Positions 102-50,219 of a DNA stretch of 50,219 nt are shown piece by piece. Source of the stretch: Shigella phage phi2457T. The stretch is taken from sequence record MH917278. One strand, given 5' to 3'. The position numbers were made by a program, and so were the translations under genes. Numbering within the stretch: position 1 is the stretch's first letter; each line of letters begins with the position of its first letter. A model generated the notes under the pieces. That model was not told the origin of the DNA. It did no database searches and saw nothing but the letters and a program-made list of their open reading frames with translations.

Positions 102-120
102 TTTTAGCAAAACGTGCTAT
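102..120 (-). promoter_or_regulatory. conserved intergenic element copy (reverse orientation), ATAGCAC-N5-TTGCTAAAA
   Basis: Plus strand reads ttttagcaaaacgtgctat, reverse complement ATAGCACGTTTTGCTAAAA; matches the consensus repeated throughout the window. Confidence 0.4.
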
Positions 121-1326: not shown

Positions 1327-1797
1327 ATGGCGACAATTACCGTATTTCTTGCTAAAGATGAGATTGATGGCGAAATGTCATTCTTCGCGTTTGAGCACAA
1401 GACCGGATCGCACTGGCATATGTACAGCCACTACACGGTCATCGATATCAACTCATACCGCGCAAACTCACTTACTGAAAAGCTGGGTTGCTTCATTGGA
1501 GCTATCAAGGTGAACAATGGCTGCGAGTGGGCAGATGAGCACGAAGATCGCCGCATGTGCAATATGATTAACCCGGTCTATCTTGAGTCGTTCGATCTTG
1601 ATGCTGATGTGGCTATTAAGGTGAGAAAGTCGGGTGAGTTGTTGCCAGGGATGCGTGTGCTGACTGGTTACTCGGGCCGTAAGGTGTGGCGCACTGTATC
1701 CAAGATTCGCCAGCGTTCGGCAACATGCTATAGCGTGTTCTTTGATGACGGCTGGAATGAGGTTGCTGGTAGTAACGTGAAGTATCTTACCAAATAG
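1327..1797 (+). CDS. hypothetical protein (156 aa)
   Basis: ORF track; SD gagg upstream; stop codon TAG lies inside the conserved element at 1794. Confidence 0.5.
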   Translation: MATITVFLAKDEIDGEMSFFAFEHKTGSHWHMYSHYTVIDINSYRANSLTEKLGCFIGAIKVNNGCEWADEHEDRRMCNMINPVYLESFDLDADVAIKVRKSGELLPGMRVLTGYSGRKVWRTVSKIRQRSATCYSVFFDDGWNEVAGSNVKYLTK

Positions 1798-1813
1798 CAC
1801 GAATTGTTAAAAC
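1794..1813 (+). promoter_or_regulatory. conserved intergenic element copy
   Basis: atagcacgaattgttaaaac; followed by hairpin ggggta/tacccc with ctatagt in the loop, then leader catcaaaacgagatacc and SD. Confidence 0.5.
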
Positions 1814-2888: not shown

Positions 2889-3095
2889 ATGAAACTGCGG
2901 TGCATTGAATCAAATCAAATTAACTACTCAGAAGGCTTCGAATATGTCGCTCAAATCGATAGCTTTACAAACAAAAGCGGAGAGGTTATTGATGTGGTTC
3001 ATGGAGTGTATACGTGGTTCTACTTTGACAAGAAAGCTCTAACAGCAACTAAGCGCAATGGCGATGTGGTGGCTAAATTTAAACGTGAACAATGA
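2889..3095 (+). CDS. hypothetical protein, member of small paralogous family (KC(I/V)...G.IY motif)
   Basis: Internal ATG (MKLRCIESNQ) with SD gagga; N-terminal motif shared with ORFs 3107, 4856, 8516, 42579, 46453. Confidence 0.45.
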   Translation: MKLRCIESNQINYSEGFEYVAQIDSFTNKSGEVIDVVHGVYTWFYFDKKALTATKRNGDVVAKFKREQ

Positions 3096-3106
3096 GGATT
3101 GAAATC

Positions 3107-3595
3107 ATGAAAATTAAATTACTTTGCACTGGCGGTTACAAGGGCTTTACTCGCGACCTGGAATCTGACCCTATTATCGTTGACGCCGTGAAGTGCAATG
3201 ATAGCATTGGCGGCTACCGCGTCAAAGTCGATGACCTGGTTAAAGCTGGCGTGTACGATCTCAATTGCGGCCTATCGGTTAGTCCGGTATTTGGCCCGGC
3301 TGACTTCAACGAGAAGGACGGAACTATGTTCTTTTTCGATTGGGAAGTGCGGGCAAACATCAAGCCTCGCAAGGTTCGACTTCTCAACAATGGCGGTTAT
3401 CCTATGCTACCAGGTTATGAGAATCGCACATTCCCGGTTATTGTTGACTTTGAAGAAATAACCACACACTTAGCTTATATCAACGGTGAACAGCTTCATG
3501 CTGTTGGATTCGTGGGAGGTATGAATCAAGAGGCGCTGTGCTTCTTCCATCGCGAATCAGAGCCGTTCGATATTGAGTGTGAGCTAGTCTACTAA
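3107..3595 (+). CDS. hypothetical protein (162 aa)
   Basis: ATG with SD gagga 8 nt upstream; N-terminus MKIKLLCTGGYKGF resembles the paralogous family. Confidence 0.5.
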   Translation: MKIKLLCTGGYKGFTRDLESDPIIVDAVKCNDSIGGYRVKVDDLVKAGVYDLNCGLSVSPVFGPADFNEKDGTMFFFDWEVRANIKPRKVRLLNNGGYPMLPGYENRTFPVIVDFEEITTHLAYINGEQLHAVGFVGGMNQEALCFFHRESEPFDIECELVY

Positions 3596-5642: not shown

Positions 5643-5861
5643 ATGGCTACTATCATGACAGCGGAAGATGCAGCGCGTGACGCAGTGGAAGGGATGCGCC
5701 CAAATACCTCCAGAATCGCACACTACTACAATTTTGACGTGTCGGCAGTGCAGCTGGTCCATGAAATTTTAAGGCTTCCACAAGTCGATTCAGCGCGACT
5801 GGTGACGTGCTTAAAAAATTATTTTTGCATCACTATTAAAACGAATAGCACGAATTGCTAA
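5643..5861 (+). CDS. hypothetical protein (72 aa)
   Basis: ORF track; weak SD; 3' end overlaps the conserved element. Confidence 0.35.
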   Translation: MATIMTAEDAARDAVEGMRPNTSRIAHYYNFDVSAVQLVHEILRLPQVDSARLVTCLKNYFCITIKTNSTNC

Positions 5862-5864
5862 AAC
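5845..5864 (+). promoter_or_regulatory. conserved intergenic element copy
   Basis: atagcacgaattgctaaaac, hairpin ggggaat/attcccc. Confidence 0.5.
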
Positions 5865-9212: not shown

Positions 9213-9440
9213 ATGGAAATTTTTTTATGGATTATCGCTGGTATCGTTATTTTTGGTGCTGGTTTATTTTCTGGCTTCGCACTTGTGGCGGCAGCAATTG
9301 CGATGGACGCGAAGGATAAAACTGGTGTATGGCTTACCTACTCACCAAAGAAGGATCAATGGGAAATGACTGGCGATCTTGCTCACTGCTACTCTAAAGC
9401 TCAGACCCACCCTAAAGGCATTAAACGACGATTATCGTGA
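9213..9440 (+). CDS. small membrane protein (75 aa)
   Basis: SD aaggag; N-terminal hydrophobic segment IFLWIIAGIVIFGAGLFSGFALVAAAIA; followed by terminator. Confidence 0.5.
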   Translation: MEIFLWIIAGIVIFGAGLFSGFALVAAAIAMDAKDKTGVWLTYSPKKDQWEMTGDLAHCYSKAQTHPKGIKRRLS

Positions 9441-9448
9441 TAAATACT

Positions 9449-9471
9449 AACCCGCTACGGCGGGTTTTTTT
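9449..9471 (+). terminator. rho-independent terminator
   Basis: Hairpin cccgctacggcggg followed by TTTTTTT. Confidence 0.65.
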
Positions 9472-9490
9472 ATGCCTGCAATATGGTAAA

Positions 9491-9509
9491 ATAGCACTAA
9501 ATGTTAAAC
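9491..9509 (+). promoter_or_regulatory. conserved intergenic element copy upstream of terminase small subunit
   Basis: atagcactaaatgttaaac preceded by ctgcaatatgg -10-like. Confidence 0.45.
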
Positions 9510-9524
9510 AAAGAGGGTATATTT

Positions 9525-10049
9525 ATGAGTGAACCTAAGAACGCTCCCGTAGTTCAGGGTGGTAATTTCAAAGAGCTATACAAGAAAAAGTTCGGCACTG
9601 TTCTTGCGAAGAATCGGACCATGACGCCTGAGCAATTATTCGATCTATCAGTTAAGTATTTCGAATGGGCTGAGGACAATGCGATCAAGGCGTCTGAATC
9701 AGCCAGCTTTCAGGGTGGCGTGTACGAATCTCTTGTTCATAAGCCTCGGGTGTTCACCTGGACAGGGTATCGACTATTCATCGGTGCAAGTGAGGCCGCT
9801 ATCATTAAGTGGAAGCGAGAAGAGGAATATAGCGAGGTTATGGAGTTCGTGGAATCTGTAATCAACGAGCAAAAATTCCAACTTGCCGCCAACGGTGTTA
9901 TTAACGCCTCCTTTATCGGCAAGGATCTCGGGATCGATAAGCCAGCCTCAATCAATATCGAAAACTCAGCAGCTTCAGCATCTACCTCTGTTGCCACCAC
10001 TGAGGATGCAATGAAAGAGGCAGTGAACAGCATTCTTGACATGCTTTAA
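9525..10049 (+). CDS. terminase small subunit (putative)
   Basis: Position immediately upstream of terminase large subunit; ~175 aa; SD aaagaggg; identity by synteny only. Confidence 0.5.
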   Translation: MSEPKNAPVVQGGNFKELYKKKFGTVLAKNRTMTPEQLFDLSVKYFEWAEDNAIKASESASFQGGVYESLVHKPRVFTWTGYRLFIGASEAAIIKWKREEEYSEVMEFVESVINEQKFQLAANGVINASFIGKDLGIDKPASINIENSAASASTSVATTEDAMKEAVNSILDML

Positions 10050-29650: not shown

Positions 29651-30613
29651 ATACATGTTCGGAGTGAAAGGAATTGGCATTGAAATGTTTATATTGAAGG
29701 GGAATTGCGCTCCGCTTTGGGTGGAATAATTACCTACTCTTGTTCCTGGGGCGCTTCTCACGTTACCTCCGCTCATACACACGCCCTTGTATCGAATGTT
29801 ATTATATCCACCTGTAACTCTGCATATCGTACCTGTTCTTAGTATTGGGAAAAATCCACCACACCACTGCCACCCGTCATTTATCGCCATAGTCCCGCCG
29901 AGAACGAAGGGGCGTCTAACGCTTGAGAAGACGATCTGACCAGCAGGATTACTCATGGTTATTCCTGGCCCTGGGGGTGGTGGAGTGTTATTAAATATTA
30001 CGAGTTGCACGTATACGCTAGCGCCAACGTCATCAATCCCGTTATAGTTTGCATCCCTGCACCATATTGTATTGCCGTCAGATTCAAGTGTTACGTTTGG
30101 ATTATCCCACATACCGAAAGGAACGCCCTGCACTGGCAACTGAGCCTGACCGTTAACCTGAATCCCCCCAACAAATGCAGCGCTCATCAATCTGGCGTTA
30201 TTCGGTATAGCTGCGAAGTTCGTTGAATCGTTAACAAGTATCCCCTGATTTCCAGCCTGAGCGGGGAGGATTTCGTAGCAGTTTCCATAAAATCTCATCC
30301 TCCTTCCACCGTGCCCGTTAAAATTACCTACCGTTATTCGTCCGGTTGAATCATTTACCTTCTGAAAACTAGTCAAATAATACACCTCCGGGATGTAATC
30401 CATATCGTCTATGTAGATAGCCTGAGATGGAAGGCAAAAAGCGGTAGATCCTGGACTCATTTGCAGACCAAAATCAAAAACCGATCCAGATGAATCAACC
30501 CCGTCAGCCTGTATAGGTCCACACCATGACGGGGCGCGAAGCCCTGAAGTTATCTCCATTGCCGGGCGACCGTCGTTTAGGTTTATATATATTCCTTGCC
30601 CCATAATTACCAC
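29648..30613 (-). CDS. putative receptor-binding protein (T5 pb5-like role, inferred)
   Basis: 321 aa Gly/Asn-rich beta-type protein co-transcribed downstream of a lipoprotein gene, convergent with J; inference from arrangement. Confidence 0.4.
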   Translation of the reverse strand: MVIMGQGIYINLNDGRPAMEITSGLRAPSWCGPIQADGVDSSGSVFDFGLQMSPGSTAFCLPSQAIYIDDMDYIPEVYYLTSFQKVNDSTGRITVGNFNGHGGRRMRFYGNCYEILPAQAGNQGILVNDSTNFAAIPNNARLMSAAFVGGIQVNGQAQLPVQGVPFGMWDNPNVTLESDGNTIWCRDANYNGIDDVGASVYVQLVIFNNTPPPPGPGITMSNPAGQIVFSSVRRPFVLGGTMAINDGWQWCGGFFPILRTGTICRVTGGYNNIRYKGVCMSGGNVRSAPGTRVGNYSTQSGAQFPFNINISMPIPFTPNMY

Positions 30614-30837
30614 TCTTTAGTTTTGATTGACACCTTGCCGCTAAAGTTGCCCTGATCGTCGTCGGATGACAGACCTTTGAATCGCATATCAATTTCGCCA
30701 GCAGGAACCTTTTGACCATCAACGAATCGCATCATGCAAGAACCGTATGCGTAAGTAACGCAGTCGCCATTTTTAAGATTCTGAGCACAACCAGTCAGGA
30801 TGAATGCCGCAGCGATAATGGTGATTAACTTTTTCAT
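30607..30837 (-). CDS. superinfection-exclusion lipoprotein (Cor/Llp-like)
   Basis: 76 aa; signal peptide MKKLITIIAAAFILTGC with lipobox LTGC; adjacent to putative receptor-binding gene. Confidence 0.6.
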   Translation of the reverse strand: MKKLITIIAAAFILTGCAQNLKNGDCVTYAYGSCMMRFVDGQKVPAGEIDMRFKGLSSDDDQGNFSGKVSIKTKEW

Positions 30838-30915
30838 TTGTATGTCCTCGTCGTTAGTGTGATTTCATTGTATGTCGCATTTACTTTTATTGCAATAGCG
30901 CGATTACAATTTTTT

Positions 30916-31259
30916 CGTGTAACAGGTGTCTATTTTTGTAACCGAAACGGGTGTTACAAAATCAACCCCATCCGACCGCAGGTGGATATGATAAAAACTC
31001 TATATAATATATATAGATAGATAATATTTAATTTTAGCTTTATATATATAATTATTGTTGTGTAACAGTTGTATATCGTGTAACAGGTGATTTGATTGAT
31101 TCGTCAAATTTCTATCATATTTGTTCAAAATATAATCAATCTTGATTCTATTCATGGATATCTTTGTATTTCTAAGAAAAAGCGGTTACAAGTATTACGC
31201 AATAGACACAACATAAAAACAGGATTAAGTAATTGATTCCGTTGGCGCTGGTTGTAACT
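30916..31259. repeat. iteron-like cluster of TGTAAC/GTTACA repeats (candidate origin or regulatory hub)
   Basis: cgtgtaacaggtg at 30916 and 31077; tgtaacag 31061; ttgtaacc 30937; gtgttacaa 30951; ggttacaag 31184; gttgtaact 31251; includes AT-rich tract 30996-31057. Confidence 0.5.
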
Positions 31260-31363
31260 TGAGCGATATAGACACGCAATTACACACCAATTACATGTAT
31301 TCGATTGACTAAACGCTGTTAATGGCTATAATGGATTCATCGTAAACGAGGGAGATAAACGAA

Positions 31364-32428
31364 ATGTTCCAGGTATTCACATCAAGTCAGCTTTCTAATG
31401 ACGAGTATCATAGCAACGAAGGTTGGGCGGCAGAGTATGTAAGCGGTTCTAGCCTTGCAGAAATTTATCAGACTTGCCCGGCTAACTGGCGATTCAAGAA
31501 GAACGAGACTACTAAAGCGCTGGATTTCGGCACTCAGTCGCACACTAACTTTGAGAGTCGAGATCTGTTTACTGCAACGTATGCGCGTTGTCCTGCTCCG
31601 TCAGAGTTTAAAGATCTTATTACTTCGCAAACGGCACTGGCAGCAAAATTAAAATCTTTTGGCCTGAAAGGCACATCCGGTAAGCAGTACCCTGACCTCA
31701 TCAAAATGATGGTTGATTGCGGTGAAGATCTCAATGTTCAATATCTTATTGAACTGATTGCTGAAGCTGAGGCGCGCGCTGAAGGAAAGCAACTGGTTGA
31801 CGCTGATAAATATGATGCCTGTATGAAGATGAGGGCCATTCTTGAGCAAAACCCAGATCATGAAGCGTGCATCAATAGCGAAACTGCGCAGCGTGAGATC
31901 TCAATTTTCGGTGAGATATCCGGCGTCAAGGTTAAGGTTCGACTTGACCATTTGGACTACAAAGAGAATGTTCCAGGTCGTGTGCTGACTGGTTATGATG
32001 AGAATGGCGATCCGGTATTTGAAGACGTGATTTTTCCTGAAGCTCTGATTATCACTGACTTCAAAACCACGATGAGCGCCAACCCGTTAGAGTTCCCGAG
32101 ACTGGCATACAATCACGGGTATTATCTTAAAATGGCCTTACAGCATGACCTATTGCGGCGTGCAATTCAGGCTGGAGCATTTGAAGGAAACTTCCCGGAA
32201 GATATTCCGATCGTAGTTCGATTGCTGGCACAGGAGAAAAAGGAACCTTACATTGCCCTTGCTTACCGCATGACTATGGAGCAAATCAGAATAGGTCGCA
32301 ATCAGTATATTAGCGTGGTCCACACTTATAAGGCTTGCTCTGAGATGGACGTTTGGCCAGGATATGCTGGCGACGCAAGCGAGATCGAACTTGAAACGCC
32401 GTCATGGGTACGATATCAAAACAAGTAA
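31364..32428 (+). CDS. putative recombination exonuclease (PD-(D/E)XK-like)
   Basis: 354 aa directly upstream of ERF and SSB genes; motif IITDFKTT consistent with D-x-K nuclease signature; assignment tentative. Confidence 0.45.
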   Translation: MFQVFTSSQLSNDEYHSNEGWAAEYVSGSSLAEIYQTCPANWRFKKNETTKALDFGTQSHTNFESRDLFTATYARCPAPSEFKDLITSQTALAAKLKSFGLKGTSGKQYPDLIKMMVDCGEDLNVQYLIELIAEAEARAEGKQLVDADKYDACMKMRAILEQNPDHEACINSETAQREISIFGEISGVKVKVRLDHLDYKENVPGRVLTGYDENGDPVFEDVIFPEALIITDFKTTMSANPLEFPRLAYNHGYYLKMALQHDLLRRAIQAGAFEGNFPEDIPIVVRLLAQEKKEPYIALAYRMTMEQIRIGRNQYISVVHTYKACSEMDVWPGYAGDASEIELETPSWVRYQNK

Positions 32429-35499: not shown

Positions 35500-35526
35500 C
35501 AATAAAAAACCGCCCGAAGGCGGTTA
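35500..35526 (-). terminator. rho-independent terminator (minus strand)
   Basis: Hairpin accgcccgaaggcggt with A6 on plus strand (T6 on minus) after the primase-like gene. Confidence 0.6.
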
Positions 35527-36459
35527 GAGTAGGTCACTTGCTGAGAATAACTTAGCTTGCATTCCTGAACGGTATCCTCCAGGATTCGGGATGATTATTT
35601 TTAATTGCCGGTCGTCAGCCATGTATAAAGTATCCTTATCTGAAGGTTCGCACGCCACTCTTACCTCGCGATCTCCTTTGTATCTGTACGCAACCATTTC
35701 GAGATTTTCAGGAGTGAAGCAGGCCCACACCTCTTGCTTTGTGTGAAATGCAATATGCTGAGCATCAATCCAATTAAGGCATAAGTAGATCGCTTTTTCA
35801 GTTTTACCAGTCACAGCAACCGAGCAACTTGTGTATTTCTTAGCGTAAAATGACTCCCTTCCTTCCTCGTCAATAATCAAAATATTGCAAAACTCGTCAT
35901 CAAGCCCGTCCTCATGCACAAGTTGACACGGGATAGTGTGAAATACGCTCTCCCCGCCATCGTCGCGACGTTTTACGCCAACGTCGAATGATTCAGTAGG
36001 TAGCGATTCAAACATGCTTAGAGGCGTCTTTACGCGCTTCTCTGTGCGCTCCATGACTTTCATCACCGCTTCATGATCTGCCATCATGACATTGACACCA
36101 GATACCGGAGTTCGGCGCGCTTTCTTGTTTGCCTTGACGATGTATTCCTGCGGAACTTTTCCGAGAAATCTTCCCAATATATTTATGCATTCGCTATACG
36201 GCATACCAGTTAATTTCATCAACCAACCGATCCCGGAGTCGTTACCGCATGAGTTGCAGATTGCACCGCCGTCTCCTGGGGTATTCAGGTTGTCGGTCCA
36301 GCGAAAACGGTCTTTACCTCCACAGTTGGGGCAAGGTTGGTGCTTCTTGTTGAATACCTCGTTAGGCAATCCGCAGACTGACTGAAAAGCCTCACGCCAT
36401 AACCCCTTCATATACGGCAAGACGTCCTCTTTCTGAAACATCATAAACTCTTCGTTCAC
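35524..36459 (-). CDS. putative DNA primase (zinc-binding N-terminal domain)
   Basis: 311 aa; CPNCGGKDRF...CNSCGN zinc-ribbon near N-terminus; adjacent to helicase gene. Confidence 0.45.
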   Translation of the reverse strand: MNEEFMMFQKEDVLPYMKGLWREAFQSVCGLPNEVFNKKHQPCPNCGGKDRFRWTDNLNTPGDGGAICNSCGNDSGIGWLMKLTGMPYSECINILGRFLGKVPQEYIVKANKKARRTPVSGVNVMMADHEAVMKVMERTEKRVKTPLSMFESLPTESFDVGVKRRDDGGESVFHTIPCQLVHEDGLDDEFCNILIIDEEGRESFYAKKYTSCSVAVTGKTEKAIYLCLNWIDAQHIAFHTKQEVWACFTPENLEMVAYRYKGDREVRVACEPSDKDTLYMADDRQLKIIIPNPGGYRSGMQAKLFSASDLL

Positions 36460-36519: not shown

Positions 36520-36972
36520 TTAACTAAAAATGCTATTCGTCGTTCCAATATCTTCCTTCTTCACGACTCGCATAAACTTCTTGTTTTTGCATCGCTTCTC
36601 AAGGCACTTTCCGTTCCCATCAAACTTCAGATCGAATCGTAGCCATGCCGCCCGGAATCCTTTGCAACCCTGTCGGCGGTAAGCACGATGCGCTGCTTCA
36701 GCGCCTTGCCATGAAATCATATTGCGATCTTTCCAGCCTTGCACCGTCTGATTGCTAACTTTTAGAGCCTTTGCGCAGGCCGCAGGACCACCGTAATATT
36801 CGATAAGAGCATCCAATCGCGCTCTCAGTCCTGCGCGCGTTTCTTCTTTATGGATATAAAATCCGCAGCGCTGGCGAGGCTTTTTATCTTTACCGCGTCG
36901 TGTTCCGTTGTTACCATTGATGTGACGTTTATCGATTTCACCAGTAGACTCTGCGATACGTTTCATATTCAT
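36520..36972 (-). CDS. HTH DNA-binding protein (Cro/YdaS-like)
   Basis: Internal ATG with SD caggag; segment CAKALKVSNQTVQGWKDRNMIS looks like a helix-turn-helix. Confidence 0.45.
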   Translation of the reverse strand: MNMKRIAESTGEIDKRHINGNNGTRRGKDKKPRQRCGFYIHKEETRAGLRARLDALIEYYGGPAACAKALKVSNQTVQGWKDRNMISWQGAEAAHRAYRRQGCKGFRAAWLRFDLKFDGNGKCLEKRCKNKKFMRVVKKEDIGTTNSIFS

Positions 36973-36985
36973 CTTAATTCTCCTG

Positions 36986-37005
36986 TAGCACTTTTTGCTA
37001 AAAAC
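36986..37005 (+). promoter_or_regulatory. conserved intergenic element copy upstream of helicase
   Basis: tagcactttttgctaaaaac in divergent region. Confidence 0.45.
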
Positions 37006-37066
37006 GTTTACTGTATGCCGTGTATTATATCGTAAACGATACAACGATTCAAAGGATTAAATAGCC

Positions 37067-44206: not shown

Positions 44207-44270
44207 GATGTTTTCCTTCAGGTCGTTTAATTTCGATGAAACAAATATACCCGATACGAGATCGGGTGTT

Positions 44271-44288
44271 TTAACAAAAAGTGCTATT
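44271..44288 (-). promoter_or_regulatory. conserved intergenic element copy (minus orientation)
   Basis: Plus strand ttaacaaaaagtgctatt = reverse complement AATAGCACTTTTTGTTAA. Confidence 0.5.
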
Positions 44289-44807: not shown

Positions 44808-46376
44808 TTAACCCATCAGTCGAGGATTGATGAAAACAATATCATCAATGCGGCAAGTGTAGTTCATCTCTTCGAGCGTGATCAGCAGGCTATCTATTCT
44901 CTCAGATACTTTCTGTTGACCGTTGAACGGAGTAACGTTCCGGCACTTTGCAACGATGCTATGAATAGGAGCGCGCCCTTTATTCTTCTTTGCGATCTCA
45001 GTGATAACATCAATCAGCTTACGAGATTCAGCCTCATCACCAGCATACCCGGCAGCGCTGGCAGACGACAGATAAGTCCTGGAAAGCTCATTGAAGATCA
45101 TGATTGCTTCCTGCATCGTTTCAAGGTCAATCTCACGGTTGGAACGGTTCGGTGATTCACCCTCCCAATTCTTGATCGTGTGGAGAACTGAAGCAATACG
45201 CAAGGCGTGCTTATCGAACTTTCCGAGATGACCGCGTAGCATTGAGTGAGAGTATTTCCCACCTGCGGCGAAATCCGGCTCCATCGCCTGACGCGCAAGG
45301 TTTAATTCACGCATAGCATTACGACTTACAGAAAGAACAACGTTTTCCTCCTTCATAATGTTGTGCACGAGTCGATAATATTTACTCACCAATCCTCGAT
45401 CTACTTCCTTATACAGTGCATCACCATTTTCATCGCAAAGGATACGAGTACCTAAAAGAGGTTCCTCACGAACAAGAAGGAAGCGCTCAGATACGCCGAT
45501 GCCTCGTTGGCCTGCGTCCATGATACCCTTGATTGTTTCATCCTGCGCAATAACGCAGATGGAACCGACCGGGCAAAGGGACAAGTTGTTATCCTGGTTG
45601 GAACGCGCCACCTCCATATGGTTTTTATCCCACGCCTTAAGGATAAGCTCACTATTTGATTTCTTGTCTGAACCCCCATAAGTCAGGCCGAGCAATGTAT
45701 TGATTGCTGTCGCCTCATCAGAGATTACGGAGAAATGACCTTGAACAGCAGCTACTTTCGCTAGACCTTCTGGTGTAGGATCTGATACCGCGAAAACAAT
45801 ATCAGCCATCTTCTTGATTTTCTCTTCCAGTTTTTCTTTGTCCTCGTATAGCGCTGCCGTCGTGTTACCCTTCGGGTCGTTCTTAATTTCCTTCTCGACC
45901 TGACGTAGCTGACTGGTTAAACGGATACGTTCCTTTTTTCGCTCTTCATTCAGTCGCTGAATCTCTGCGCGCATAGGCGTAATCGCTGCGGAGTTAATCG
46001 CAGATTTACCTGTTGACGGTGGCTGGCTGATTACCATGTAAAGAGCGGTTGGTTGTTCTTCTCCGTGATATTGCACCCAAAACTTCCCGAGCATCGCGGC
46101 TGAGATGCACCCAATGAAATGAGCGTACGCAGACGAAACAGGGAACTGTACAGACTCGGCCTTTGCTTTTGCATATTCGAATACCAGGTTATCGCCACCT
46201 AACGAAATCAGAGGGAACTTATCGTTGCCGCTATTGATATCGATCGGATCTTGCCAAAATGAAACTGAGTCACCATAGCTGTTTTCACGAATTGCGATCG
46301 CCACCGGATTAACTCCAGTACTATTGGCGATCTCAATAATCTGTTGGTAATTCAGTTTTGGCTTAATATTAAACAT
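44808..46376 (-). CDS. large early protein with P-loop-like motif and central coiled coil (function unknown)
   Basis: Internal ATG (MFNIKPK) with SD aaggag; PPSTGKSA motif; Lys/Glu-rich coiled-coil segment; conserved element and hairpin upstream. Confidence 0.5.
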   Translation of the reverse strand: MFNIKPKLNYQQIIEIANSTGVNPVAIAIRENSYGDSVSFWQDPIDINSGNDKFPLISLGGDNLVFEYAKAKAESVQFPVSSAYAHFIGCISAAMLGKFWVQYHGEEQPTALYMVISQPPSTGKSAINSAAITPMRAEIQRLNEERKKERIRLTSQLRQVEKEIKNDPKGNTTAALYEDKEKLEEKIKKMADIVFAVSDPTPEGLAKVAAVQGHFSVISDEATAINTLLGLTYGGSDKKSNSELILKAWDKNHMEVARSNQDNNLSLCPVGSICVIAQDETIKGIMDAGQRGIGVSERFLLVREEPLLGTRILCDENGDALYKEVDRGLVSKYYRLVHNIMKEENVVLSVSRNAMRELNLARQAMEPDFAAGGKYSHSMLRGHLGKFDKHALRIASVLHTIKNWEGESPNRSNREIDLETMQEAIMIFNELSRTYLSSASAAGYAGDEAESRKLIDVITEIAKKNKGRAPIHSIVAKCRNVTPFNGQQKVSERIDSLLITLEEMNYTCRIDDIVFINPRLMG

Positions 46377-46432
46377 CACAATAAACTCCTTAGTTGACGG
46401 TGTAAATGATACACCGACAATGGTACACGCGT

Positions 46433-46450
46433 TTTGCAAAAAGTGCTATT
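46433..46450 (-). promoter_or_regulatory. conserved intergenic element copy (minus orientation)
   Basis: Plus strand tttgcaaaaagtgctatt; hairpin cggtgta/tacaccg lies between it and the gene start. Confidence 0.45.
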
Positions 46451-49213: not shown

Positions 49214-49232
49214 TTTTAACAAAAAGTGCTAT
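49214..49232 (-). promoter_or_regulatory. conserved intergenic element copy (minus orientation)
   Basis: Plus strand ttttaacaaaaagtgctatc. Confidence 0.5.
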
Positions 49233-50060: not shown

Positions 50061-50118
50061 GTCGATTCCTCTGATTGGTTGATGAGATGAATAATACCCG
50101 ATCTACCCGGGTGACGTG

Positions 50119-50135
50119 TGGCAAAAAATGCTATT
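50119..50135 (-). promoter_or_regulatory. conserved intergenic element copy (degenerate, minus orientation)
   Basis: Plus strand tggcaaaaaatgctatt; hairpin and leader follow on minus strand. Confidence 0.35.
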
Positions 50136-50219
50136 CCAATAGTTGCTCATTATTCCACCATCAATGGAATATCTGGAATAATTGCGATCCCGATTGATCT
50201 CGAATGATGAAATGTGATT

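Follow-up and report, generated by a model that had tools for sequence, protein, structure and literature searches.

Background

The origins of lambda and of the iteron plasmids pSC101, R6K, RK2, P1 and F combine iterons of 17-22 bp with an AT-rich unwinding element; in lambda the initiator gene contains the iterons, and DnaA boxes are present in the plasmid origins. The virulent siphovirus SPP1, which packages its DNA by the pac headful mechanism, has two origins formed by initiator-binding repeats beside an AT-rich region. One of them, oriL, lies inside gene 38, and replication uses a dedicated origin-binding protein, G38P, a loader and a DnaB-type helicase. Satellite P4 has two separated cis loci, ori and crr, that share type I iterons TGTTCACC, with an AT-rich stretch at ori; its alpha protein is a superfamily 3 (SF3) helicase fused to a primase, and the C-terminal domain reads the iterons. 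In the origins of Staphylococcus aureus pathogenicity islands (SaPIs), an AT-rich tract is flanked by 6-12 penta- or hexanucleotide iterons, one half to its left and the other to its right; these origins adjoin the rep gene, immediately downstream of it. Rep is a self-loading helicase that reads the iterons by a C-terminal winged helix, and one type of Rep is superfamily 6 (SF6)/MCM-like (PMC9371898). Here we analyse a 526-bp intergenic region (30838..31363), named region B, of Shigella phage phi2457T (sequence record MH917278; the whole stretch of 50,219 nucleotides is called the window), in which copies of the hexamer TGTAAC lie on both sides of an AT-rich core.

Phage phi2457T is a T1-like member of the genus Tunavirus (Drexlerviridae). 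The window holds a complete genome that begins at the same point (position 1) as the T1 record. The surroundings of the locus are 99.2% identical to Shigella phage Sfin-1 and ~92% identical to T1. T1 belongs to the seven classic T phages. Of the coliphages and Klebsiella phages, therapy candidates included, the Drexlerviridae are some of those isolated most often. The annotators of TLS and SU57 reported no origin in T1-like genomes (PMC11447400, PMC7718038), and thus the role is unfilled. No Drexlerviridae origin is described in the literature that we searched, which did not include the 2004 T1 genome paper.

Region B is one of two copies of a cis-module that is under selection and consists of lineage-specific short repeats around an unstable AT core. 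The other copy, region A, is situated at the left end of the genome. We propose, with about even confidence, that region B is a replication origin of the SaPI Rep kind, placed between outward-firing promoters and present as one of two paralogous copies.

Iterons and the AT-rich core of region B

Seven exact hexamers TGTAAC/GTTACA were found in region B, starting at 30918(+), 30937(+), 30953(-), 31061(+), 31079(+), 31185(-) and 31253(+). The initial annotation, made from the sequence alone, had listed at least seven copies in both orientations, and this count holds; the positions that it gave as 30951, 31184 and 31251 are shifted by 1-2 nt, and the others are exact. The longer repeat CGTGTAACAGGTG, which it had placed at 30916 and 31077, is indeed present at both sites, and a third copy with one mismatch, GTGTAACAGTTG, starts at 31060. 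This 12-mer is absent from the rest of the window at 0 or 1 mismatch. The hexamer count in the whole window is ordinary (26 observed versus 20.8 expected). Seven of these 26 copies fall inside 341 bp (Poisson P = 2e-9), and none of 20000 random placements reached seven hexamers per 350 bp. The order of orientations is + + - / core / + + - +, that is, both directions occur on each side, without simple mirror symmetry.

The left iteron CGTGTAACAGGTG (30916..30928, plus strand) has its TGTAAC core at 30918-30923, invariant in 16 relatives. It is followed by an inverted pair, TTTTGTAAC-N10-GTTACAAAA (30934..30961, cores 30937-30942(+) and 30953-30958(-)), with 9-nt arms that are 100% complementary. 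Directly to the right of the AT core there are three tandem 9-bp units GTGTAACAG / TTGTATATC / GTGTAACAG and then GTG (31059..31089, plus strand), with TGTAAC cores at 31061 and 31079. A distal pair on the minus strand (31183..31200) is formed by GGTTACAA, which includes the exact GTTACA 31185-31190, and the degenerate TATTACGC. The last exact hexamer, 31253..31258 (plus strand), is a further iteron. Two degenerate copies CAATTACA, 11 bp apart (31277..31295, minus strand), lie 10-28 bp upstream of the -35 box of the promoter of the exonuclease VIII gene exo. In Tempevirinae, the distal pair aligns with a GAACA pair, and the two degenerate copies align with a GAACA/AAACA pair.

Further degenerate copies are TGTAAT at 30903, 31279 and 31290, and TGTATA at 31070. 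When both TGTAAC and TGTAAT are counted (TGTAA[C/T]), 10 of the 56 window copies fall in region B. A second class of motif, ATAGACAC, occurs at 31202..31209(+), 31268-31275(+) and 30926-30933(-), these being three of its four exact copies in the window; its TAGACA core occurs 15 times in the genome, six times in region A and three times in region B.

The AT-rich core (30996..31057, 62 bp) is a candidate DNA-unwinding element. It contains the sequence TATATAATATATATAG, which is also present in the core of region A. The initial description of a near-pure A/T run flanked by iterons was right about the tract and about the flanking, with three hexamers on the left (30918-30958) and four on the right (31061-31258), but the tract, at 90% A+T, is not pure. 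In AT content and in instability alike, the 60-mer 31002-31061 ranks second in the window, its stability being ~5.6 standard deviations below the mean. A hairpin or cruciform in the core was considered and dismissed, as the folding energy is the same as that of shuffled sequence (z = -0.03).

Conservation in Tunavirus and in the family

Region B is 91-99% identical across 64 Tunavirus records; its T1 counterpart is 29851-30375. In an alignment of 16 distinct Tunavirus sequences, 91-99% identical, 41 of the 42 hexamer columns are invariant, compared to 258 of 363 (71%) other columns (Fisher P = 2e-5). This indicates that purifying selection acts on the hexamers. The columns of the AT core are 95% invariant. 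The inverted pair TTTTGTAAC-N10-GTTACAAAA varies in its spacer and not in its arms, a pattern that is the expected signature of a protein-binding site. We infer that a protein binds the repeats.

The module occurs family-wide, which the initial annotation had overlooked, together with the paralogous copy at the left end of the same genome. Across the Drexlerviridae genera examined (Tlsvirus, Warwickvirus, Webervirus, Rtpvirus and the unclassified LF82-10), there are always 410-500 bp of noncoding DNA directly upstream of exo. The module stays beside exo irrespective of the left neighbour, which may be cor, the gene of tail protein J or a primase gene. In 46 IMG/VR loci retrieved with the exo protein, the AT-richest 60-mer was sought in each 4-kb locus. 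Its centre lies 298-359 bp upstream of the exo start codon in 45 of them, and the exo identity among these 45 loci ranges from 50 to 100%.

The repeats flanking the core change from lineage to lineage. They are TGTAAC in Tunavirus, GTAATC/GATTAC (eight copies) in locus L025, TGTAAC and TGTCAC in locus L026, GTTAC and GCGTATA in locus L054 and Rtpvirus, TGTTC/GAACA in Tempevirinae, AACTACAG in LF82-10, and GTAAGAT/ATCTTAC in Webervirus KP1801, which also has perfect or near-perfect 16-bp palindromes GTAAGATGCATCTTAC. A multi-genus alignment reveals homologous repeat positions: to the left of the core lies a pair; directly to the right, two or three tandem copies with 9-11 bp spacing; ~150 bp beyond these, a pair of opposite orientation; and, immediately upstream of the exo -35 box, one more pair. 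The place of the tandem units is taken by two GTAATC in L025, by TGTAAC and TGTCAC in L026, and by TGTTTC and TGTTCT in the Tlsvirus LL5. The trinucleotide TGT is invariant at the left pair and in the tandem copies, and the bases that follow it differ. Since the repeats are fixed in position and change in sequence between genera, a co-evolving phage-encoded binder is suggested. The repeats differ even among phages of one host, E. coli, and hence the protein that reads them is probably encoded by the phages and co-evolves with its sites.

The second copy at the left end of the genome

Region A is a 680-bp noncoding region between divergent early operons (50063-50219 and 1-523); it spans the arbitrary ends of the window and matches the left end of T1. 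Its AT core (209-268) is the most AT-rich 60-mer in the window. The cores of regions A and B are paralogous, with a local alignment score of 54 versus 24.9 +/- 3.7 for locally shuffled sequence. Apart from TATATAATATATATAG, they share the unit TGTAA[C/T]AGTTGT at the right edge. Regions A and B also supply the two most AT-rich 60-mers in each of T1, LL5 and KP1801. In KP1801 the repeat GTAAGAT marks both loci, which are ~16 kb apart: 10 of its 19 genome copies are in region B and 4 are in region A. In the window, the repeats of region A are CTAGACA (4 of 5 genome copies), TGTGAC (3 of 12) and TGTAAT (four copies).

Candidate binding proteins

The genome encodes a DUF3987 protein (44808..46439, minus strand; Pfam DUF3987, E = 3e-42, 522/543 residues), predicted to be an MCM-like (SF6) helicase with a C-terminal winged helix. 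In its AlphaFold2 model (pLDDT 89.5) the C-terminus has the order helix-strand-helix-helix-strand-strand, which corresponds to a canonical winged helix; the C-terminal domain comprises about residues 445-522 of the 522-residue form. When this model was compared to the Protein Data Bank (PDB) by Foldseek, the top 50 matches were, without exception, chains of MCM2-7 or of archaeal MCM. When the sequences of the helicase and of the regulator considered below were searched against the PDB, nothing significant came up, and only the fold search was informative. DUF3987 proteins have been described as SF6 helicases that have a winged helix-turn-helix domain at the C-terminus (PMC4889955), and helicase activity was demonstrated for one of them (PMC11724360). 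In T1 the protein is annotated as 'putative ATPase'. It is probably the replicative helicase and a candidate initiator.

In a close relative (L070 ~3089-3241, the IMG/VR copy of Shigella phage vB_SsoS_008) the DUF3987 gene is apparently frameshifted just before the winged helix; the tblastn match splits into two frames at residues 494-496. Either the sequence contains an error here, or the DNA-binding domain is naturally truncated.

An alternative candidate binder is a Cro/C2-like helix-turn-helix (HTH) regulator (36520..37044, minus strand), identified by a match to a PHROG family of transcriptional regulators (E = 3.5e-76), a sub-threshold match to Pfam P22_Cro and the T1 annotation. Its gene lies directly upstream of that of a zinc-ribbon DnaG-type primase (35524-36459), and a gene encoding a superfamily 2 (SF2) helicase is divergent from it. 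The promoter region of the regulator does not contain TGTAAC. Instead, the 94-bp gap between the regulator gene and the SF2 helicase gene carries a perfect 14-bp palindrome, TATCGTAAACGATA (37028-37041), unique in the genome, which is likely the operator of the Cro/C2-like regulator and a more natural one than TGTAAC. The initial annotation had named the HTH proteins of the phage as ones to test for binding. The Cro-like protein indeed stays among the candidates, but it is neither the sole nor perhaps the best one.

A distant phage provides an independent view of the module. In locus L085 (ENA ERZ28629217, MURP18-1 scaffold_137), a 476-bp noncoding region (9307-9782) lies directly upstream of an operon encoding a DUF3987 protein, which is 35% identical to that of the window; the module is ~220 bp upstream of the DUF3987 gene. 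The edges of this region have outward promoter-like sequences, read by eye. It holds the AT-richest 60-mer of the 21.5-kb locus, flanked on both sides by GGGGAAG/CTTCCCC (five of the six locus copies, P = 5e-11) and by three copies of AGGGTTAA. There is no large noncoding region upstream of exo in L085, and the 21.5 kb examined contain no detectable homologue of the Cro-like regulator, whereas DUF3987 protein, primase and SF2 helicase are retained in one cluster. Therefore the module travels with the helicase and primase set, and not with exo or the regulator.

Four tandem TGTAAG/TGTAAC/TGTAAT units, 10-21 bp from start to start, were observed in another contig that encodes a DUF3987 protein (L087 1380-1470, Logan SRR34318142_8690). 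They are located in a 700-bp noncoding region beside an AT-rich stretch. TGTAA-type repeats may be widespread among phages with the DUF3987 helicase.

Neighbouring genes, promoters and other signals

The placement of region B between a divergent lipoprotein gene and recombination genes, as initially annotated, was confirmed. On the left is the Cor-type lipoprotein gene cor (30607-30837, minus strand; Pfam Phage_lipoprotein, E = 8.6e-25); on the right is exo (31364-32428, plus strand), followed by the genes of Erf and of an SSB-like protein.

The region had also been called gene-free. This holds for two of the three open reading frames (ORFs) in it: 30838-31020(+) and 31000-31155(-) are both interrupted by stops or frameshifts in relatives. 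The third, a 46-codon ORF with a TTG start (31096-31236, plus strand), stays open and free of indels in 16 of 16 Tunavirus sequences, and its counterpart in T1 is annotated as CPTT1_049, with a ribosome-binding site. However, it lacks a coding signature: its substitutions are distributed over the codon positions as 9/14/12, without third-position bias, and about one quarter of the residues vary although the sequences are at least 91% identical. Small genes were thus rejected as an explanation of region B. Structured RNA was ruled out as well, as Rfam search of region B matched zero families at E up to 1. Search for relatives of region B, such as satellites or decoys, in E. coli genomes or plasmids gave no match.

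Candidate sigma-70 promoters were found at both edges of the module, and both point outward from it. The predicted promoter of cor, TTGCAA-17-TACAAT (30867..30895, minus strand), the weaker match of the two, comes from a consensus scan and is mostly invariant in Tunavirus; the record of phage SA32RD also has a promoter annotated at this position. The strong predicted promoter of exo-erf-ssb, TTGACT-16-TATAAT (31305..31332, plus strand), agrees with the consensus at 11 of 12 positions, is retained in all genera aligned and has 96% of its columns invariant in Tunavirus. All exact hexamers lie at least 47 bp upstream of the exo promoter, and only the two degenerate copies CAATTACA come closer to its -35 box. 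A promoter reading into the AT tract, which would be the mark of a T7-type origin, was not found, both predicted promoters facing away from it. No -35/-10 pair conserved inside the AT core was seen by eye in the family alignment.

TLS and other T1-like phages carry published 21-nt direct repeats aaATAGCACnnnTTGnTAAAA (PMC11447400). This repeat, in the form ATAGCACnnnTTGnTAAAA, was found at 26 sites of the window when up to 3 mismatches were allowed (2.1 expected), none of them in 30838-31363; examples are 102-120(-), 1794-1812(+), 5845-5863(+), 44269-44287(-) and 49214-49232(-). Like the TGTAAC iterons, these repeats are intergenic and belong to the same phage family; unlike them, they are scattered genome-wide upstream of start codons and mostly co-oriented with the genes. 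They are a different class of repeat, and the identity of the region B iterons with them was rejected.

Host-factor signals typical of origins were not supported. There are no DnaA boxes (TTWTNCACA) in regions A and B, and region B contains a single match to the IHF consensus (31226-31238, minus strand) and a single Fis-like match. GATC does not occur in region B, compared to 2.6 sites expected, which is not significant; the genome has 251 such sites and encodes a Dam-type methyltransferase.

Origin of replication or regulatory region

The initial annotation had offered a replication origin or a regulatory hub as the function of the region. This is partly supported. A conserved cis-module is firmly backed by the selection on the repeats, by their constant positions and by the fixed AT core. 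An origin is the most economical explanation, since an MCM-like winged-helix helicase is encoded by the phage, the layout matches that of the SaPI origins, and the module precedes the DUF3987 operon in L085. The mechanism might be as follows. A sequence-specific protein encoded by the phage, the best candidate being the C-terminal winged helix of the DUF3987 helicase (44808-46439), would bind the TGTAAC-type hexamers on both flanks. The 60-bp, 90% A+T core would then melt, helped by negative supercoiling from the outward cor and exo promoters. The helicase would load itself, the zinc-ribbon primase would prime, and a host polymerase would copy the DNA. The repeat copies beside the exo promoter may couple the expression of exo-erf-ssb to the occupancy of the module.

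A broader proposal, possible though on balance doubtful, is that T1-like phages in general replicate from an MCM-type origin system, with the MCM-like helicase, probably as opposed hexamers, loaded at an iteron-flanked AT core. Region A, near the operon of the helicase, and region B, beside the recombination genes, would then be two origins, or else an origin and a distant enhancer like ori and crr of P4. Early transcription, replication and recombination-dependent formation of concatemers would be coupled, and the lineage-specific changes of the repeats would be a natural record of the co-evolution of initiator and origin specificity.

Several observations weigh against an origin. Region B also carries the conserved exo promoter, and regions A and B both precede early operons. 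In region A of T1, an inverted TGTAAC pair overlaps a promoter-like -10 box, as is typical of operators. The repeats of region A are mostly unlike those of region B (GATTAAC in T1; CTAGACA, TGTGAC and TGTAAT here), which makes one initiator for two origins awkward. In LL5 the repeats are weak, the best k-mer having P of ~1e-3 to 1e-5. Distances of 13.4 kb and 3.6 kb separate the DUF3987 gene from regions B and A, respectively. In the five lineages compared, the repeat diverges in parallel with the winged helix, with the Cro-like HTH and with two small proteins encoded nearby, so that co-variation singles out none of them as the binder. Finally, GC skew tracks gene orientation only, and was dropped as an origin marker.

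Some of these facts would fit the main alternative, which we consider somewhat unlikely, namely, that the module controls transcription only. The hexamers would be operators of a phage factor, for instance the Cro/C2-like HTH protein (36520-37044), that switches the promoters of cor and exo-erf-ssb and the early operons at region A, and the AT core would be bendable or insulating DNA. Such a role predicts what is seen at the conserved strong promoter 31305-31332, where two degenerate repeats lie upstream of the -35 box at 10-28 bp, and also the position of both copies of the module upstream of early operons; the inverted pair over the promoter-like -10 box in T1 and the 16-bp palindromes GTAAGATGCATCTTAC of KP1801, typical of dimeric HTH operators, point the same way, and HTH regulators are encoded by the phage. 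However, most of the repeats and the AT core are 50-390 bp upstream of the promoters, in the space between outward promoters where no promoter function needs them. The promoter region of the regulator itself has the unique palindrome TATCGTAAACGATA instead of TGTAAC, L085 keeps the module with no detectable homologue of the regulator within 21.5 kb, and region B has none of the 26 copies of ATAGCACnnnTTGnTAAAA, the promoter-associated repeat of the family. This alternative also leaves the extreme and positionally conserved AT core without an explanation. The two roles are compatible, because initiator sites often regulate adjacent promoters too. It is quite improbable that the module is a site for packaging or recombination, either a pac-like site of the small terminase or a nuclease break that starts recombination-dependent replication via exo, Erf and SSB. 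The T1 record starts no more than a few hundred bp from region A, roughly at the end to which the pac cut of TLS was mapped; region B abuts the recombination genes, and several HNH endonucleases are encoded. On the other hand, the submolar pac fragments of T1 and TLS form a single series, which comes from one end, with no second site reported near 30 kb (PMC11447400), and the terminase genes are highly conserved, yet the repeats change between close relatives. Nothing connects the HNH genes with the site, and the AT core forms no hairpin or cruciform. It is hardly credible that the repeats have no cis function and are a by-product of the 46-codon ORF or of AT-rich low-complexity sequence. None of the 16 Tunavirus sequences interrupts this ORF, and the T1 annotation gives it a ribosome-binding site, but its codon positions (9/14/12) and variable residues (about one quarter) argue otherwise, and it covers only one of the seven hexamers. 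An ORF at a similar place in LL5 has no obvious resemblance to it, as judged by eye, and the hexamers contain G and C, are clustered (P = 2e-9) and are under selection.

Comparison with known origins and significance

As in lambda and the iteron plasmids, repeated candidate initiator sites accompany an AT-rich element in region B. The differences are that the units of region B are 6-13 bp long and intergenic, and that DnaA boxes are lacking; a scan of ten window proteins found no RepA- or O-like family. SPP1 resembles the present case in having two loci with repeats next to AT-rich DNA, and no homologue of G38P was seen among the window proteins scanned. The parallel with P4 is best seen in KP1801, where the GTAAGAT repeat is common to both loci. 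Unlike P4, the helicase here is predicted to be MCM-like and the primase is separate, and the two loci of T1 and of the window use largely different repeats.

The analysis offers two candidate loci of a few hundred bp, a candidate initiator and natural variants of specificity in related phages. If the proposed function is correct, there would be a tractable bacterial model of how an MCM-like helicase recognises an origin and loads itself. The largest noncoding regions of the compact Drexlerviridae genomes would be accounted for, and these would be regions to keep intact in phage engineering.

The resemblance to the SaPI origins, the closest system described, involves several features. The number of iterons in region B, seven exact copies and at least three TGTAAT, is in the range of 6-12; three iterons are to the left and four to the right of a central AT core; and the genome encodes a predicted MCM-like helicase with a C-terminal winged helix. 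With respect to orientation the comparison is ambiguous: at least two SaPI iterons on each side have opposite directions, and in region B both orientations occur on each side, but without simple mirror symmetry. Unlike in SaPIs, where the origin adjoins rep, the helicase gene is distant from region B (13.4 kb) and from region A (3.6 kb), although in L085 the distance is ~220 bp. The left repeats are ~35 bp from the core and do not abut it, and there are two paralogous copies per genome. The module lies between outward promoters in a virulent enterobacterial phage, and the binding is a prediction here. Thus an element of this kind is already known, and, if the function is confirmed, the variant features would be its two copies, the distance to the initiator gene and the placement between outward promoters.

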